Part shown: positions 1 to 7,532 of the stretch, one piece after another
Numbering within the stretch: the stretch's first letter is position 1
How the letters are laid out: the number at the start of each line of letters is the position of its first letter
Virus record (IMG/VR): IMGVR_UViG_2675903336_000001
Origin: a virus
Taxonomy: Duplodnaviria; Heunggongvirae; Uroviricota; Caudoviricetes
Length of the DNA: 7,532 nucleotides
Direction: 5' to 3' (one strand)
Position numbers and translations under genes: made by a program
The notes under the pieces: generated by a model
Told to the model about the DNA's origin: nothing
The model's database searches: none
The model's input: only the letters and a program-made list of their open reading frames with translations

Positions 1-40
1 GCATTTGCTTTATCATGTAAAAGTCCTCTCTGCTCAGCAT
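1..40 (-). CDS. istA: IS21-family transposase IstA, N-terminal 13 codons (partial, continues past window edge)
   Basis: Reverse complement of 1..40 translates from ATG to MLSREDFYMIKQM, which matches the N-terminus of IS21-type IstA as I recall it. Too short for an independent statistical call. Confidence 0.65.
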   Translation of the reverse strand, partial: MLSREDFYMIKQM

Positions 41-141
41 GTTGATGTCCTTTCTGGTGTGAGAACCTTAAGGAAACAACATGTTGGGTGGAGCGGACAA
101 TCCAAATGGCGAATTACCGTCTTATATCACTGGCGCTGACA
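1..141 (-). mobile_element. IS21-family insertion sequence, left end only (rest lies beyond the window start)
   Basis: The minus strand carries a transposase start at 40..38 (see istA feature). A TGTCAG motif, which I recall as typical of IS21-family termini, sits at 141..136 on the minus strand, about 100 bp upstream of that start. Stf-like coding sequence ends abruptly at the same place. The exact boundary is an estimate. Confidence 0.6.
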
Positions 142-453
142 CTTCATCACCTCCGGACGTAAATCACCATCCTTTGGTGCATTCAGAAACGCGTTCAGTG
201 TCCCCGGTGCATCAGTCGGTGCCACATCAATATCCCCGACACGGGTTGGCTGCCAGCCGTTACAGTGAAGCGCAACCTCGTAATACCCCGGCTCAGCCTC
301 AATCACATAAGCACCGTTATTGTCCGTCACGCAAGTGGCAACAACGTGTGCCACAACGGTCGGACTGGTTCTTCTGGCCCGCAGTTCAATCGCACAATTT
401 ACGACAGGTTTACCCGCCCCATCTTTCAGTACACCTGAAATCTTTACTGCCAT
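127..453 (-). pseudogene. stf: Side tail fibre (Stf-like) N-terminal fragment, truncated by the IS21-family insertion
   Basis: ATG at 453..451 begins MAVKISGVLKDGAGKPV..., resembling the lambda Stf N-terminus (MAVKISGVLKDG...). The frame stays open only about 108 codons and reaches a stop at 129..127, inside the presumed IS end. Position after lom matches lambda order J-lom-stf. The ORF-track start at 495 is an upstream extension that overlaps the lom terminator. Confidence 0.6.
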
Positions 454-463
454 ATTCACCCCA

Positions 464-489
464 CAAAAAGCCCGCCTGAACCAGCGGGC
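464..489 (-). terminator. Putative rho-independent terminator downstream of lom
   Basis: Plus strand has gcccgc (470-475), an 8-nt loop, then gcgggc (484-489), preceded by aaaaa (465-469). On the minus strand this reads as a GC-rich 6-bp stem followed by TTTTT, 28 nt past the lom stop. Confidence 0.5.
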
Positions 490-516
490 AGTCATAACAC
501 TGTGTTACCTGGCTAA

Positions 517-1116
517 TCAGAACTTATAACCGACACCCACGATGAAACCGTCAGTGCGCCAGTCACCACTGCCGGAACCTTCATAAGCAAGGTCAATGGC
601 CACGGATTCGGTCGGGTTAAACTGCACGCCAGCCCCCCACGCCAGAGACGTGTTGCTGTGGCGACCGCCATCACTTCCGGTCAGCACATCGTGCGTTTTC
701 CCCTTGTTGTCAGTTACGCGGAGATAATCCCCGGAGAAGGTCGACACACGGCTGTAAGCCACGCCCGCCATCGCATACGCGCTGAACCATTCATTCACGC
801 GCACAGACGGCCCCGCCATCACGCTGAACCAGCGGTTACGCACGGAATCCTCATGCCAGCGGGTATCGCTGTAATGCGTTTTTTGCTCATCTTCAGCGTT
901 GGCATAACTGAATGACGTAATCAGCCCCAGCGTGTCCGTAAACTCATAACGGTATTTCACGTTAATGCCCTTCAGGTCATCGCTGCCTGGCATATCAGTA
1001 TGGGTCTGAAGATACCCGGCGCTCAGCGTGGACTGATGTTCAGACGCCCATGCAGGCGCACCGGATACGGCCAGACAGATGGCTGCGGACAAAATGGCTG
1101 CACAAACTTTACGCAT
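517..1116 (-). CDS. lom: Lom outer-membrane beta-barrel protein (Ail/Lom/OmpX/PagC family), prophage moron
   Basis: 199-aa ORF with a signal peptide (MRKVCAAILSAAICLAVSGAPAWA). C-terminus ...AYEGSGSGDWRTDGFIVGVGYKF matches the lambda Lom C-terminus, including the terminal aromatic residue typical of OMP barrels. SD-like GAGAGG lies 4-5 nt before the ATG at 1116. Confidence 0.9.
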   Translation of the reverse strand: MRKVCAAILSAAICLAVSGAPAWASEHQSTLSAGYLQTHTDMPGSDDLKGINVKYRYEFTDTLGLITSFSYANAEDEQKTHYSDTRWHEDSVRNRWFSVMAGPSVRVNEWFSAYAMAGVAYSRVSTFSGDYLRVTDNKGKTHDVLTGSDGGRHSNTSLAWGAGVQFNPTESVAIDLAYEGSGSGDWRTDGFIVGVGYKF

Positions 1117-1140
1117 AATTACCTCTCGCTTTTCTGCAAT

Positions 1141-1164
1141 AAAAAAGGCACCATTTCTGGTGCC
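1141..1164 (-). terminator. Putative rho-independent terminator between J and lom
   Basis: Plus strand has aaaaaa (1141-1146), ggcacc (1147-1152), a 6-nt loop, then ggtgcc (1159-1164). On the minus strand this is a 6-bp GC stem followed by TTTTTT, 20 nt past the stop of the J C-terminal ORF (1186..1184). Confidence 0.55.
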
Positions 1165-1183
1165 CGTATCTGGGTTATAAAAT

Positions 1184-4100
1184 TCAGCTAATCGTGATGC
1201 CTGCAGTGGCTTTCTTCATCACCACAACCAGCAAATCGCTGATACTTGCTGTGGGATACCAGCCATTTACCAGCCATGCCGATACAGAAAACTCCAGCGT
1301 CATGTGACCGTGACCGGCAGGCATATCAATAACACCCGTATATATCAGCGTATTATCCAGGGTCGTTCGGTTATAAATTTCAGCACCGTTTTTCTTCACT
1401 ATCAGGCGGCATGACGAATAAATATTGTTATTCTTCCGCTCATGTTTAGCACCGCGAAACGCCACCGCGGGAATAACAATTTGCCGATCAAACGGCTGAT
1501 CGTCATAAACCCTGACGGTAATGGTCCCTGATGGCCACCTCTCCGGTGCCCGGGAGTCCCGTGGGAAAGGTTTGCCCACTGTTTTAACGAGATCGCCTTC
1601 AATCTGGTTCGCGGACAATTTTCCCAGAACCCGACNNNNNNNNNNNNNNNNNNNNNNNNNNNNNNNNNNNNNNNNNNNNNNNNNNNNNNNNNNNNNNNNN
1701 NNNNNNNNNNNNNNNNNNNNNNNNNNNNNNNNNNNNNNNNNNNNNNNNNNNNNNNNNNNNNNNNNNNNNNNNNNNNNNNNNNNNNNNNNNNNNNNNNNNN
1801 NNNNNNNNNNNNNNNNNNNNNNNNNNNNNNNNNNNNNNNNNNNNNNNNNNNNNNNNNNNNNNNNNNNNNNNNNNNNNNNNNNNNNTCGCAGGATTAATCA
1901 TCGCAATCCTGTCTGCCGCCAGCAGCACCTGACTCTGCATTCCTGCTGGCGTATTCTCAATACCGGCACCGATACCCGCAATATAAAGGCGTCCGTCCTT
2001 CATCTGTTGCAGCTTCACAGCCCACATGCTGTTCAGGTTATTATTTGTATCAACCTGAACTTTCTGTATCTGCTGGATTGCAGCACTCTGATTTTCCAGT
2101 TTTTTATTGACGGTTTGCGTGATTTCATTGCTGACATTCGTAATGGACGTCCTGATTTCAGTCAGGTCCGGCGCAAGCTGACCGTTATCAATCTGCGTCC
2201 ACAACTCCTTGCCGAGATGCGTTTTATTGATCAACCCTTTATAAAAATTCAGATAACCTTCTGCATCATCGCTCGCCCGACCGATGGCCTCCACAAATGC
2301 CGATTTGCCAACGGTGTTCACACTGCGAACGTAAAAATAATAATCATGGCCCGGCCTGATATTGATACTGGCGGCTATCCAGTACAGCGCCGTGCCAAGA
2401 TAGCGGGCGCTGGTTTCAACCTGCCTGATATCCGCAATCCGCTTTTCCGAAAACCAGAACTCAAACTGCACCGTCGGGTCATATACAGCCAGTTTCGGGA
2501 CCGCCGTTATCTGAAAATACCCCGGTATCAGTTCAATAGTGACAGGCGCTGCCGGTGCCGCAATCCGGAACGATACCGACGCCGGATCGCCCTGCTGCCC
2601 CCGGGCATTTACCGCCCGGACTGTCAGACTGTAATTCCCCAGCGCCAGCTGCCTGAAGCGGTATGTGGTTTCCGTCGTCCTGGCTGTGCTGACCAGCCGC
2701 TCACTGCCGTCGTCCGCTGCCACGGTCAGGCGAAGCAGGAAGCTCACACCCTTCACCACCTTCGGCGTGTCCCATCGCGCCAGCACCTGATATTCCCCGC
2801 TGTCTGCGGTGACTTCGGCGGTCAGATGCTGCACCGCTGGCGGCGTGACACCATTCACCGTGCCGCGCCGGTCACCGTCAAAGTGTGCCCCGTTATCCAC
2901 GATGGCCTCTTTTTCCGGCACATGCTGCACGGCGGTGATGGCATACGTGCCGTCGTCGTTCTCACGGATACTCACGCAGCGGAACAGACGCTGGCGCAGC
3001 GTCGGCAGCTTCAGCCCCCACACGCTGTATTCTGCAACGCCGTCAGGAACCCGGCTCACTTTCACCTTCACGCCGTCGGTGACGGACTGGACCTCCACGC
3101 TGACCGGATTGCCACTTCCGTCAACCAGGCTTATCAGCGTGGTACCGGAGGACGGCAGCGTGATTTCACGGTCGAGCGTCAGCGTCCGGGTCTGGCTGTT
3201 CACCGCCAGTACGCGACCACCGGTGCTGATACCGGCATAATCATCATCGCAGATTTCAATGACATCACCCGGTACATGGCGAAGCCCTTCTGCGCCCACG
3301 CTGAAGTCCACGGTCTGCGTTTCCAGCAGTTCCGTTTTAATCAGCCACAGCCCGGCTCGGTGTGCCTGCCCCCGGCTGGTACAGCCAAAGGCATCCATCT
3401 TCGNNNNNNNNNNNNNNNNNNNNNNNNNNNNNNNNNNNNNNNNNNNNNNNNNNNNNNNNNNNNNNNNNNNNNNNNNNNNNNNNNNNNNNNNNNNNNNNNN
3501 NNNNNNNNNNNNNNNNNNNNNNNNNNNNNNNNNNNNNNNNNNNNNNNNNNNNNNNNNNNNNNNNNNNNNNNNNNNNNNNNNNNNNNNNNNNNNNNNNNNN
3601 NNNNNNNNNNNNNNNNNNNNNNNNNNNNNNNNNNNNNNNNNNNNNNNNNNNNNNNNCATACAGCGCATCGCCGAGCAGAAATCACTGAGAACATCCCACG
3701 CCTTACGCTGTGTGGTCAGGTAAGAGTTACAGGTGATGCGCGGCTCCGTGCCGCCAAATCCGTCCGTCACTGACTGGTCGCAGTACTGGCCGATGACATA
3801 CAGCGCCCATTTGTCCACATCTGCCGCACCAAGACGTTTCCCCATGCCGTAGCGCGGATGAGTGAGCATGTCCCACAGACACCAGGCCATGTTGTTGCTG
3901 TATGCTGGCTTAAGCGTTCCGTCCCAGATACCGCTGTATTGCCGCGTCTGCGGGTTATAGTTCGACGGCACCTGCAGAATGCGCCCGCGAAGATGATAAT
4001 TGCGACTCACCTGCTGGTTACCGAACTGCTCTGAATCCACCTGCACGCCGACCAGCGCCGTGTTCGGGTAGCACTGTTTCACATCGATGATTTCGGTGTA

Positions 4101-4703
4101 CGACGACCAGAGCGTTTTGTTCTGCAGCTGGTCTGTGGTGCTGTCCGGTGTCATCCTGCGCATCCGGATATTAAACGGGCGCGGCGGCAGGTTACCCACC
4201 ACCACCGAGGCCAGATACTGCGAAGTGGTTTTGCCCTTAATGGTGATGTCTTTTTCCGTCACCCAGCCACCGTTACGCTGTATCTGAACCAGCAGGCGGA
4301 CTTCCGACGGATTCCGGTCACCCTTTGAGGTGGTTTCCACCAGTGCCTGCACACCGAAGGTCAGGCGCAGACGGTCGATGTTTGCCGACGTGATGGTCCG
4401 GGTGATCGGCGTGTCATATTTCACTTCCGTACCCAGCACCGTCTCGGAGCCGGAGGATTCAAAACCCTCCGGCGGTGTCTGCTCCTGCTCACCTGCACGG
4501 AACACCACCGTAACACCGGAAAAGTTTGTCTTCCCCTCGCTGTCCAGGACCGGCGTACCGTTCAGCAGCACGCTTTTTAATCCATCCACCGGACCGTCAA
4601 CCGGCCCTTCGCTGATGGCATCAATCACACTCAGCAACTGCGTGGATTTCAGGTTGTCCTTCGCTTCGCGCGGGGTATGCCCCTTACTGCTGCCTTTACC
4701 CAT
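1184..4703 (-). CDS. J: Tail tip / host specificity protein J (central tail fibre); interrupted by two N-masked blocks, with a frame change across the first
   Basis: ATG at 4703..4701 begins [34 protein letters not shown]..., closely matching the lambda gpJ N-terminus. The frame is collinear through the 3404-3656 mask (...FCSAMRCM / [22 protein letters not shown]...). The body frame runs to ...[11 protein letters not shown] at 1887. The C-terminal domain (...[21 protein letters not shown]...[13 protein letters not shown]...[14 protein letters not shown], stop at 1184) matches the lambda gpJ receptor-binding C-terminus but lies in a different frame. The ORF-track stop at 1599 is a short read-on in the body frame after the mask. 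Confidence 0.85.
1636..1885. other. Masked or unsequenced block (250 N) inside J
   Basis: Run of n characters; no sequence information. Would correspond to the J region between the fibronectin-like body and the receptor-binding domain. Confidence 1.
3404..3656. other. Masked or unsequenced block (253 N) inside J
   Basis: Run of n characters. The J frame is preserved across it, so about 84 codons are hidden. Confidence 1.
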
Positions 4704-4763
4704 TCCTCACGCTCCATAAACGACAAAACCGCCCGCAGGCGGTTTCACATAAAACATTTTGCA

Positions 4764-5405
4764 TCAGCGACCAATCACCACAACCTGACCACCATCCCCT
4801 TCGTCTGCCGTGCTGATCTCCTGAGAAACCACACGTGACCCCACGCGCATTTCACCGTACAGAACGGGCAGAACATTGCCCTGGGCAACCATGTTATCCA
4901 GTGACGAGAAATACGTGTTCTGCTTACCGTTATCCGTTGTCTGTGTACGGGGAGTTCTGGCTTTCGGTGCCAGCATCTGTGCAACACCGCCAAGCGTCAT
5001 ACTGGCACCGAGAGAAAACAGCAGATTACTCGCCATAATTCCTACCCCCGGCATCCATATAGCAACCGCCATAACAGCCGCCCCCAGCACCGCCTGAAAC
5101 ACACCGCCACTTTTAGCTCCCACCAGACGCGGTACTATGTGGATCACTGCACCATTTGCCAGCGGCTCATTAAGACGGGCAGACAATTCGGTTTCACCTG
5201 CATCACGCCCGGCAATGCGCACCTGATACCAGCCGTCACTCAGTTTCTGACGAAACGCCGGGAGCTGTGTGGCCAGTGCCCGGATGGCTTCAGCCCCCGT
5301 TTTCACACGAAGGTCGATGCGGCGACCAAATCGTTGTAAATCCCCGTAAAGGCAGATGCGCGCCATGCCCGGTGACGCCAGAGGGAGTGTGTGCGTCGCT
5401 GCCAT
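4764..5405 (-). CDS. I: Tail tip assembly protein I (ubiquitin-like N-terminal domain)
   Basis: 213-aa ORF beginning MAATHTLPLASPGMARICLYGDLQRFGRRIDLRVKTGAEAIRALATQLP... and ending ...VSQEISTADEGDGGQVVVIGR, matching lambda gpI as I recall it. The ATG at 5405 overlaps the 3' end of K by 103 nt in another frame. A GTG at 5306..5304 overlapping the K stop (GTGA) is an alternative start. Confidence 0.85.
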   Translation of the reverse strand: MAATHTLPLASPGMARICLYGDLQRFGRRIDLRVKTGAEAIRALATQLPAFRQKLSDGWYQVRIAGRDAGETELSARLNEPLANGAVIHIVPRLVGAKSGGVFQAVLGAAVMAVAIWMPGVGIMASNLLFSLGASMTLGGVAQMLAPKARTPRTQTTDNGKQNTYFSSLDNMVAQGNVLPVLYGEMRVGSRVVSQEISTADEGDGGQVVVIGR

Positions 5406-6046
5406 TTGTCGGTGTACCTCTCTCGTTTGCTCAGTTGTTCAGGAATATGGTGCAGCAGCCCGCCGTCACCGCAGTAAATGGCGGCATGATTCGGCACCGA
5501 TGAACCAAAACAGCACAGCAGCACATCGCCCGGCTGTGCCTCTGTCAGTGCGACACGGTAAAAACCCGTCACCTCCATATTGTCAAGATAGAGATTCTGA
5601 CCGTTACGCCACCAGTCATCCCCGCGATGAAAATCCGGCATCTCAATCCCTGCCAGATGATAAGCATCCCGGAACAGCGTGTAACAGTCCGTCACCCCGT
5701 GCTCAAAGCGCCGCCCGGTGAGATGCGGCACACAGCGGAACTTGTGAATCGCCCCCCGGCAGACCAGCCACCACGGCAAATCACTCTGCACCTGCAGCCG
5801 CCGGTCAGCCTCACTCAGCCAGGGCAGACCACCGGGATGACTGTGGACCAGCGCCACAATCTCACCCTGCATTTGTGCCCGCAGCCAGTCCTCCGGAGCC
5901 ATCCGGAACCGTTCCTCCGGCTCACCGGAGATATTCTCGCTGGGAAGATACCTGTCTCCCTCCGGCGTTCTTACCACGAAGCCACACGACTCCGCTGGCG
6001 CACATCGCCGGGCGTGCGCCAGAATCGCTGATTCTGTCTGTGTCAT
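5303..6046 (-). CDS. K: Tail tip assembly protein K (JAMM/MPN metallopeptidase plus NlpC/P60-like domain)
   Basis: ATG at 6046..6044 begins MTQTESAILAHARRCAPAESCGFVV..., 5 nt after the L stop. JAMM-type motif HSHPGGLPWLSEAD (HxH-x7-S-x2-D) is encoded at about 5845..5804. The C-terminal half has Cys and His residues (GVTDCYTLF ... NHAAIYCGDG) consistent with an NlpC/P60 fold. The ORF-track version (5303..6310) is an upstream extension into L. Confidence 0.85.
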   Translation of the reverse strand: MTQTESAILAHARRCAPAESCGFVVRTPEGDRYLPSENISGEPEERFRMAPEDWLRAQMQGEIVALVHSHPGGLPWLSEADRRLQVQSDLPWWLVCRGAIHKFRCVPHLTGRRFEHGVTDCYTLFRDAYHLAGIEMPDFHRGDDWWRNGQNLYLDNMEVTGFYRVALTEAQPGDVLLCCFGSSVPNHAAIYCGDGGLLHHIPEQLSKRERYTDKWQRRTHSLWRHRAWRASAFTGIYNDLVAASTFV

Positions 6047-6050
6047 GGAT

Positions 6051-6749
6051 TTACTGAGAAAGTTTATTGATGGAAAGGAAACCGCCGAAATTACCGGTAT
6101 TGTTGCGCAACTCACACCCGCGCATACACTTGCTGCATTTGTCCTTCCGGATATCCGTCGTTGGTTTGTCGAACTCGTCAGCCACTGCCCTGCCCGTGTA
6201 ACCACACTCATCAGAACGGTAAGTCCACATACAGGTATTCGCCAGCATGATACGCCCCGGGAAAACCGCGCCATCCGTCTCCGTTGGTGTGGCCAGCACA
6301 AAAGAGGCACTGACCGCGCTCAGTTCGCTGCACTGCTCGATGCGCCAGCGGCTGATCACCTCCTGTTCCGGATCGGCGTCGCTGTTTCCGTTGACGAAGT
6401 TCACCGCATCCAGAAAACGGGCGTAAACCTTACGCCTGACCACCGTTCCGCCGACCAGACTCTGCAGGTCTTCCGCCATCCCGGTGACCATTCCGTGCAG
6501 GTTAGAAACCGTCAGTGTCGGACGGGCAGCACTGCCCTTGCCGTTCAGTTCAAATCCCGTCCCCTGAATGGGGTATGCCTGATACTGCCGCCCCTGCCAG
6601 GTAACCGGCTCACCTTTTTCGTTCTGCTCATTACAGAAAAAATAACGTTCACCACCGACCTCTGTCAGATCGATTTCCCAGAGCACCACCTGGGCTGACT
6701 GAGTGAGGCGTGTCGTCTCATGATGTGTTTCCTGTGGAATATCCTGCAT
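6051..6749 (-). CDS. L: Minor tail protein L (tail tip complex; C-terminal cysteine cluster)
   Basis: 232-aa ORF, MQDIPQETHHETTRLTQSAQVVLWEIDLTEV..., same length as lambda gpL. Strong SD GGAGG lies 5 nt before the ATG at 6749. C-terminal Cys-rich segment (CMWTYRSDECGY...DKCSKCMRGC). Confidence 0.9.
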   Translation of the reverse strand: MQDIPQETHHETTRLTQSAQVVLWEIDLTEVGGERYFFCNEQNEKGEPVTWQGRQYQAYPIQGTGFELNGKGSAARPTLTVSNLHGMVTGMAEDLQSLVGGTVVRRKVYARFLDAVNFVNGNSDADPEQEVISRWRIEQCSELSAVSASFVLATPTETDGAVFPGRIMLANTCMWTYRSDECGYTGRAVADEFDKPTTDIRKDKCSKCMRGCELRNNTGNFGGFLSINKLSQ

Positions 6750-6758
6750 CAGAGCCTC

Positions 6759-7088
6759 CTATGCCACGACCTGTTCAAAATCTGCCGTTATGGTTACCCA
6801 CAACGCCCCCACGCTTGCCGACCATTTACGACAAACCACCCTGATCGGCTTCCAGTCATAAGGTGGCGTCCACTGAAATGCGCGGACGCCACCGTGCCGT
6901 TCCAGAAAGGCTTTTAAAAATGGGTGTTCACCTTTACGAACACGTATCTTCACGCTGTAAGTCGACAACTGGTTATTCAGTCCCGCCGCACGACGCTGTT
7001 CATAACCATCGCCCAGCTTCACTGTCACCACTTTCGGCTCTGATACCACATTCATATCCGGGCGCACTTTCCAGTGAAACGTCTCCAT
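6759..7088 (-). CDS. M: Minor tail protein M
   Basis: 109-aa ORF, METFHWKVRPDMNVVSEPKVVTVKLGDGYEQRRAAGLN..., same length and start as lambda gpM. Its ATG (7088..7086) overlaps the H stop TAA (7090..7088) as TAATG, implying translational coupling. Confidence 0.9.
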   Translation of the reverse strand: METFHWKVRPDMNVVSEPKVVTVKLGDGYEQRRAAGLNNQLSTYSVKIRVRKGEHPFLKAFLERHGGVRAFQWTPPYDWKPIRVVCRKWSASVGALWVTITADFEQVVA

Positions 7089-7427
7089 TACCGGTATGCT
7101 CCACTTAACCGGCCACCATCACGGGCCTGCTGTTGCATAAAGTCCGCGGCCGCTTTTTTCCCGAGGTCATAAACCACCTTCAGGGCAGCCGGACCTATCT
7201 GCCCGTTCGTGCCATCGTTATTGATCTCAATGTTGTACTGCGGGGCAAACATCACCATGCCTGAACCACCAGTATCCGCCACACCCCCCAGCTTACCATC
7301 AGCACCGCGACGCAGTGGCAGAATGGCTTCAGGTCCCGCTTCCCCCATCACACCCGCGCCTTTTGCAAAAGCAAAAAACGTCGGACGGTTAACCACCGTG
7401 CCACTGTAGCGACTCAAATCAGCAGAC
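7088..7427 (-). pseudogene. H: Tail tape measure protein H, C-terminal fragment (5' part removed by IS insertion)
   Basis: Open frame ending ...EAGPEAILPLRRGADGKLGGVADTGGSGMVMFAPQYNIEINNDGTNGQIGPAALKVVYDLGKKAAADFMQQQARDGGRLSGAYR, with stop overlapping the M start. Position and synteny (H-M-L-K-I-J) match lambda. Upstream of about 7427 the frame runs into IS sequence, so the ORF-track start at 7453 is not native. Confidence 0.75.
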
Positions 7428-7532
7428 TGAGGTAGCCTGAGTTTAACGGACACTCCTTCCTGAAATAGAATGGCATCAGAAGGAGCTAATAATGAGCAGA
7501 AAAACCCAACGTTACTCTAAAGAGTTCAAAGC
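7428..7532 (+). mobile_element. IS3-family insertion sequence (IS600-like), left end, continues past the window
   Basis: Begins TGAGGTAGCCTGAGTTTAACGG... at 7428 (IS3-family ends typically start with TG). It contains an SD AGGAG and the orfA start at 7492. The end position is an estimate. Confidence 0.65.
7492..7532 (+). CDS. IS3-family transposase OrfA, N-terminal 13 codons (partial)
   Basis: ATG at 7492 is preceded by AGGAGctaata and translates to MSRKTQRYSKEFK, which matches the start of IS600-type OrfA as I recall it. Confidence 0.65.
   Translation, partial: MSRKTQRYSKEFK

Follow-up and report, generated by a model that had tools for sequence, protein, structure and literature searches.

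A lambda-like tail-tip remnant between IS600 and IS21 fragments in the Shigella sonnei chromosome

A block of phage tail genes with a different insertion sequence (IS) at either end raises a simple question: is it part of a working virus, a cassette that the two IS can move, or what is left of a prophage? We have explored this question in the IMG/VR virus record IMGVR_UViG_2675903336_000001 (Caudoviricetes), a stretch of 7,532 nucleotides whose full length is called the window here. A sequence-only reading of this DNA had described an isolated, lambda-like M-L-K-I-J-lom block lying between an IS3-family and an IS21-family element that truncate the tape-measure gene H and the side tail fibre gene stf, had pointed to a Shigella-type source, and had suggested that two unlike IS could let the segment move or delete as a unit. 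Based on our results, we are highly confident that the window is a non-functional lambda-like prophage remnant in the chromosome of S. sonnei, where it forms part of the IS-rich, phage-derived sit island by uspF-ompN.

The Shigella source held up. Once its two N masks are set aside, the window matches the S. sonnei chromosomes CP023645, CP102341 and CP019689 at 100% identity; CP019689 belongs to Shigella sonnei 75/02 (PMC5447701), and the Shigella reference 2015C-3794 (PMC8627651) has the accession CP022455. Both IS600 and IS21 are known from S. sonnei: Hawkey et al. (2020, PMC7373316) count IS600 as one of five IS that have expanded in every Shigella species, and IS21 as one of the twelve IS carried by S. 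sonnei 53G. Both IS junctions were present in all 23 related loci that we fetched. In 5,426 complete E. coli genomes neither junction was found (0/5,426), the best matches spanning only 142..7429, and an exact-pattern search of the GTDB species-representative genomes matched neither junction, the source not being among the representatives. Furthermore, lysis, head and tail-shaft genes, together with about 88% of H, are absent locally, the 10 kb on either side holding nin/Q genes, tRNAs, IS and sit; no functional prophage or tail-producing element lies within that distance of the window. Lambda tail assembly requires full-length H, G/GT, V, U and Z. As tape measure, tube, terminator, chaperones, head and lysis genes are all missing from the locus, we infer that the cassette cannot build a tail.

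The right end of the window (7428..7532, plus strand) is the left end of IS600, a member of the IS3 family, and matches positions 1-105 of the 1264-bp element with 100% identity. The IS3-family element had been placed against H at about 7428, and the left inverted repeat, TGAGGTAGCC, begins exactly there; the ATG of orfA follows at 7492 and its coded peptide is MSRKTQRYSKEFK. Annotated IS600 copies share 99.8% identity with the 1264-bp element. Its terminal repeats start with TGAGGTAGCC and end with ...ACACCTCA, giving TG...CA termini, and its full copies carry OrfA (100 aa) and OrfB in different frames, OrfB scoring 348.7 bits against NF033516. The NCBIfam cut-off is 160 bits for this model and for NF033546, and Pfam matches were judged against their curated cut-offs. 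In full genomes, the IS600 copy adjoining the H remnant is only a fragment of 479-482 bp that keeps the left repeat and orfA, and with neither orfB nor the right end it is dead.

At the other side, the left end of an IS21-family element occupies 1..141 on the minus strand and is 98-99% identical to annotated copies; over 2,400 E. coli genomes contain matching elements, annotated as "IS21-like element IS21 family". The boundary, proposed at about 141, was set by a three-way alignment with an IS21 copy and the uninterrupted stf of ipaH-carrying E. coli, which places the switch from IS21 to stf between 141 and 142. Identity to IS21 ends at base 141 with ...GCGCTGACA, and the terminal repeat reads inward from 141 as TGTCAGCGCC... 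An end at base 151, apparent in a match to E. coli 2/0, was rejected: by alignment, its last 10 bases are chance similarity. For the matches of the two window ends to IS elements, E-values of 7e-67 and 4e-48 rule out chance. The gene istA starts at 40 on the minus strand and extends past the window edge (the reverse complement of 2-40 is MLSREDFYMIKQM). Once a nested IS600 is removed, the first 332 aa of the IstA transposase score 279 bits against NF033546. The copy is incomplete; it stops at IS21 position 1098 and has neither istB nor the right repeat. Judged from this sequence, what remains is a dead piece of an IS21-family element, not an active member of that family.

The wider chromosomal locus shows how these fragments are nested. 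We describe it in the coordinates of one fetched locus, L004, in which the tail genes lie on the plus strand (in the window they lie on the minus strand). The block from the H remnant to the stf remnant occupies 3730-10975 (plus strand). Beyond stf come IS21 positions 1-428 (10976-11403), a full IS600 in minus orientation with GTT on both sides (11404-12667), IS21 positions 426-1098 (12668-13340), IS600 positions 88-1264 in plus orientation (13341-14517) and the 3' part of stf (14518-15188). Before H come IS600 positions 1-479 (3251-3729), the copy seen in the window, and a full IS600 in minus orientation (1987-3250). The sequence-only reading held that IS had truncated both H and stf, and this stands for H, the rest of which is absent at the locus; stf, in turn, is interrupted, and its 3' part survives, with the DUF4376 gene, 3.5 kb beyond the window. 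Target-site duplications had also been proposed as a check at the far ends of the two IS, which is impossible since both touching copies lack their far ends. Only the full IS600 nested in istA is flanked by such a duplication, the 3-bp GTT; the full IS600 at 1987-3250 has none (GTG vs CTT). At 13340/13341, IS21 position 1098 is fused to IS600 position 88, both breaks being internal and with no obvious microhomology. This join implies a deletion that would have taken istB, 433 bp of stf and the left end of that IS600; the 433 bp are lost relative to the closest uninterrupted stf, that of E. coli FDAARGOS_944 (locus L001).

Several features of the IS600 copies are worth recording in their own right. 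The 479-bp fragment directly precedes the full IS600 in the same orientation (1987-3729), and in CP023645 (locus L003, 1397-3729) an extra 590-bp fragment lies between the two. The internal IS600 joins are both at a TGA of the older copy that coincides with the TGA ending the incoming copy, which could reflect 3-nt microhomology or end-like targeting.

The neighbourhood beyond the IS belongs to the same phage-derived region. A look at the flanking genome for the rest of the prophage, as had been advised, returned no head, lysis or tail-shaft genes; the Q region and four tRNA genes lie beyond IS600. Left of L004 750 are nin-region genes (DUF4014, HNH, DUF551, hok, DUF1367, ybcO) with IS600 and IS1 copies, followed by the Q antiterminator gene (750-1304) and tRNA Met-CAT, Arg-TCT, Thr-TGT and Gly-TCC (1494-1804). 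The four-tRNA cluster thus sits just downstream of Q and ends about 180 bp before IS600; a tRNA cluster beside the Q antiterminator gene is seen in many lambdoid and Shiga toxin (Stx) phages. On the other side, the DUF4376 gene (15139-15762) is followed by sitDCBA (15963-19412), with uspF and ompN beyond. The sitA-D genes take their names from RefSeq annotation (99% identity), are found 5 kb from the left end of the window, and are embedded in phage-derived, IS-rich DNA, as expected of the sit island. In all 23 loci, the unit is at one chromosomal place, between Q and sit.

Between the two IS ends, the M-L-K-I-J-lom block is otherwise intact, as had been proposed, with Pfam matches above the cut-offs, and the phage-type long open reading frames (ORFs) of the window are all on the minus strand. 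From right to left, the window holds the last 112 codons and stop of H (7088..7427, codons 7426..7088; TIGR01541 tape_meas_lam_C, profile 259-332 of 332, 1e-22), the minor tail protein genes M (6759..7088, 109 aa, intact; Phage_min_tail, 6e-39) and L (6051..6749, 232 aa, intact; Phage_tail_L, 8e-97), and the tail tip assembly genes K (5303..6046, 247 aa, intact; Prok-JAB and NLPC_P60, that is JAB plus NlpC/P60) and I (4764..5306, in its 180-aa form; Lambda_tail_I, 9e-24), for which other upstream starts reach up to 5405. These are followed by J (1184..4703), coding for the tail tip attachment and host specificity protein with all GpJ Pfam domains and two N masks, by lom (517..1116), coding for an intact Ail/Lom outer-membrane beta-barrel of 199 aa (Ail_Lom, 4e-129, full length), and by stf' (142..453), which keeps the first 104 codons, close to the roughly 105 first proposed (phage_tail_N, 1.6e-36, profile 1-104 of 134). 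All lie on the minus strand. The order H C-terminus, M, L, K, I, J, lom, stf is that of a lambda-like tail tip, M to stf' being recognised by Pfam and H by TIGR01541. No family matched in an Rfam scan of the window.

Two artefacts of annotation touch these genes. In the window, J seems to carry a frameshift near 1599-1620, which we rejected. The N runs at 1636-1885 and 3404-3656 (250 and 253 Ns) stand for 219 and 244 real bases, and the frameshift is false because the masks exceed the sequence they replace by 31 and 9 bases; in unmasked, otherwise 100% identical loci, J spans 3480 nt and encodes an intact protein of 1159 aa. At the junctions, new reading frames arise. Past the IS21 boundary, the stf frame takes in four codons of IS21 (CQRQ) before a TGA at 129-127 ends it, so that the chimeric Stf' ORF (window 127-495) gains CQRQ and a stop from the IS21 repeat and is called as a 122-aa hypothetical protein. 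At the other end, a GTG at 7453 in the IS600 repeat opens a 121-codon ORF into the H remnant (7088-7453), called as a hypothetical protein of 121 or 127 aa. The junction-spanning Stf' protein is recorded in 543 blocks of an assembly collection, mostly on contigs of 5-10 kb, a size expected of short-read assemblies broken at both IS. In the same collection, the exact Lom protein is recorded in 1874 blocks.

Could such a block be kept because it is useful, with Lom serving as a virulence or adhesion factor, or J and stf as a reservoir of host-range alleles for lambdoid phages? All six genes from M to lom are intact over 7.3 kb in a genome with frequent IS insertions, and none of the S. sonnei loci examined lacks the block, as one would predict for a maintained cassette. 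This intactness is also expected of recent decay, given that the fetched genomes show 0-2 differences in 7,246 bp. With so few differences among strains, selection is not measurable, and "recent and neutral" cannot be separated from "maintained". In some assemblies, single-base indels break K, lom, L or J, which would speak against usefulness; they are probably sequencing noise, as the same assemblies show broken sit genes. The loci L017 and L019-L025 (from JBEAA... and similar assemblies) have many scattered frameshifts, sitA-D and ompN included, which suggests uncorrected long-read errors and pseudogenes that are not trustworthy there. Taken together, a retained function of the cassette, through Lom or host-range alleles, is unlikely, and we regard usefulness as an improbable explanation for its presence.

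Returning to the remnant reading, the two complete IS600 copies give it a dynamic aspect. They are in direct orientation, with left ends at L004 3250 and 12667, that is 9,417 bp apart. In S. sonnei 75/02 (loci L006 and L007), two tandem copies of the unit made of the IS600 fragment, H' to stf', IS21(1-428) and IS600 follow each other with a period of 9,417 bp and are identical. A period that exactly equals the IS600 spacing is the expected product of unequal homologous crossing-over, which would be the mechanism here. The reciprocal deletion of the 9.4-kb unit is predicted as well, and would leave no novel junction. The direct repeats therefore make the tail-tip block and the adjoining sit island prone to duplication or deletion, which fits earlier reports of instability: PMC7545054, citing Fisher 2009, describes the sit island as IS- and phage-rich and unstable through homologous recombination. 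The broader proposal that the 9.4-kb unit varies in copy number across S. sonnei populations, with lom and J retained for a role in the outer membrane or for supplying host-range alleles, by recombination, to incoming lambdoid phages (Stx phages included), seems to us a long shot.

The same duplication has a bearing on whether the two flanking IS could move the segment as a composite transposon. There is an IS on both sides, and the unit occurs twice in 75/02. What touches the segment, however, is an IS600 fragment and an IS21 fragment, elements of different families with unlike transposases and ends. Of this IS600, only a 479-bp piece lacking orfB and the right end is left; in the IS21 copy, istA is split by IS600, and everything from position 1099 to the end is absent, istB and the right repeat included. 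Since the two touching IS are from different families and are both truncated, they cannot mobilise the segment. Furthermore, the two copies in 75/02 form a tandem whose period equals the IS600 spacing, a signature of crossing-over and not of transposition, and the unit is at the same chromosomal place in 23 of the 23 loci that carry it. For the outer pair of full IS600 direct repeats, we saw no copy at a second site with a target duplication. We thus consider a composite transposon extremely improbable. The earlier suggestion that two unlike IS could move the segment as a unit fails as a mechanism, and its other half survives in altered form, as the unit does duplicate, by way of two like, complete and direct IS600 that lie outside the window. 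Finally, that the junctions are assembly artefacts of a chimeric contig joined via repeats is next to inconceivable: the window does end within repeated IS sequence, and contigs with its proteins are mostly 5-10 kb, as in short-read assemblies that break at IS, but over 20 chromosome-scale S. sonnei sequences, each assembled independently, show both junctions base for base and with the same flanks.

A possible history of the remnant would start from an ancestral lambdoid prophage with the late genes H-M-L-K-I-J-lom-stf-(DUF4376)-sitDCBA. IS21 would have entered stf after codon 104, and IS600 copies would have entered istA of IS21, the distal part of stf, and H or a place upstream of H. Later deletions may have cost IS21 its 3' half, stf 433 bp and one IS600 its first 87 bp; on the other side, everything from the Q/tRNA region to the last 112 codons of H would have been lost, leaving the 7.3-kb tail-tip cassette. 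The two complete direct IS600 would then provide the homology for unequal crossing-over, giving the tandem duplication, and deletions of the same unit are predicted.

We found nothing that contradicts the anatomy of the locus, and a few points weigh against the history and the loss of function that we attach to it. What we observed directly are the coordinates, the identities, the nested IS copies, the GTT duplication and the 9,417-bp period; recombination as the mechanism and the sequence of insertions and deletions are inferred from these. The duplication is present in one assembly only (CP019689) and is known from the assembly, not from reads. Instead of being deleted, the head, tail-shaft and 5' H genes absent here might have been carried to another part of the genome by an IS-mediated inversion. 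Six intact genes between the IS are compatible with recent decay and are no proof that function has been lost, and lom could still be expressed.

The feature is an ordinary outcome of the IS expansion of Shigella, previously sequenced and annotated, and so it is already known biology. It has little importance beyond correct annotation, for which it offers a clean, base-resolved example of IS600 and IS21 dismantling a Shigella prophage. In short-read assemblies of S. sonnei, the block is expected to appear as an isolated contig of about 7.5 kb that ends in IS, and gene callers would report chimeric "hypothetical proteins" over both junctions. In addition, N masks of non-native length can produce false frameshifts, as in J.

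At the DNA level, the tail-tip block shares 92% identity with the lambdoid phages PhiR55_1, Ayreon, cdtI and mEp460, and 97.8% with a fairly complete prophage of ipaH-carrying E. coli FDAARGOS_944 and others. In prophages of the FDAARGOS_944 type, H and stf continue through both break points, H spanning 2956 nt in L001; in that genome, the prophage adjoins bioA-ybhB, next to ipaHa. The stretch from the stf 3' part through DUF4376, sitDCBA and uspF to ompN is 99% identical to E. coli CFSAN029787 (locus L015), which we take to be an enteroinvasive E. coli (EIEC) of serotype O96:H19. The accession CFSAN029787 is not mentioned in PMC7283534. In this genome, the stf-DUF4376-sit end is joined to a different, baseplate-bearing prophage, from which it follows that the sit module is a mosaic "moron" end common to different phages.

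Compared with known systems, the locus is closest in plan to phage lambda, sharing the gene order and families of H-M-L-K-I-J-lom-stf, with a J N-terminus and an H C-terminus that are recognisably lambda-like. Unlike lambda, it retains no more of H than the final 112 codons and no more of stf than the initial 104, and it is without Z, U, V, G, T, head and lysis genes. In the sit pathogenicity island described in Shigella and E. coli (Fisher et al., 2009, cited through PMC7545054), sitABCD is likewise found directly downstream of stf/DUF4376, whereas the window holds the tail-tip part only and no sit. Another parallel is the defective, IS600-flanked Stx prophage of S. dysenteriae 1 (McDonough and Butterton, 1999, cited in PMC7819885), also a lambdoid remnant without most structural genes, and one that parallels the 9,417-bp tandem duplication as well. 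The species, site and cargo differ (stx versus tail-tip genes), and the amplification described here is in one genome assembly only and is known from sequence alone. Finally, on the pINV plasmid of EIEC and Shigella, two IS600 bracket the tra region, and recombination between them has been proposed to delete tra (PMC7283534). There, as here, a segment is bracketed by two IS600; the pINV copies are inverted and lie on a plasmid, whereas those of the S. sonnei locus are chromosomal and direct.

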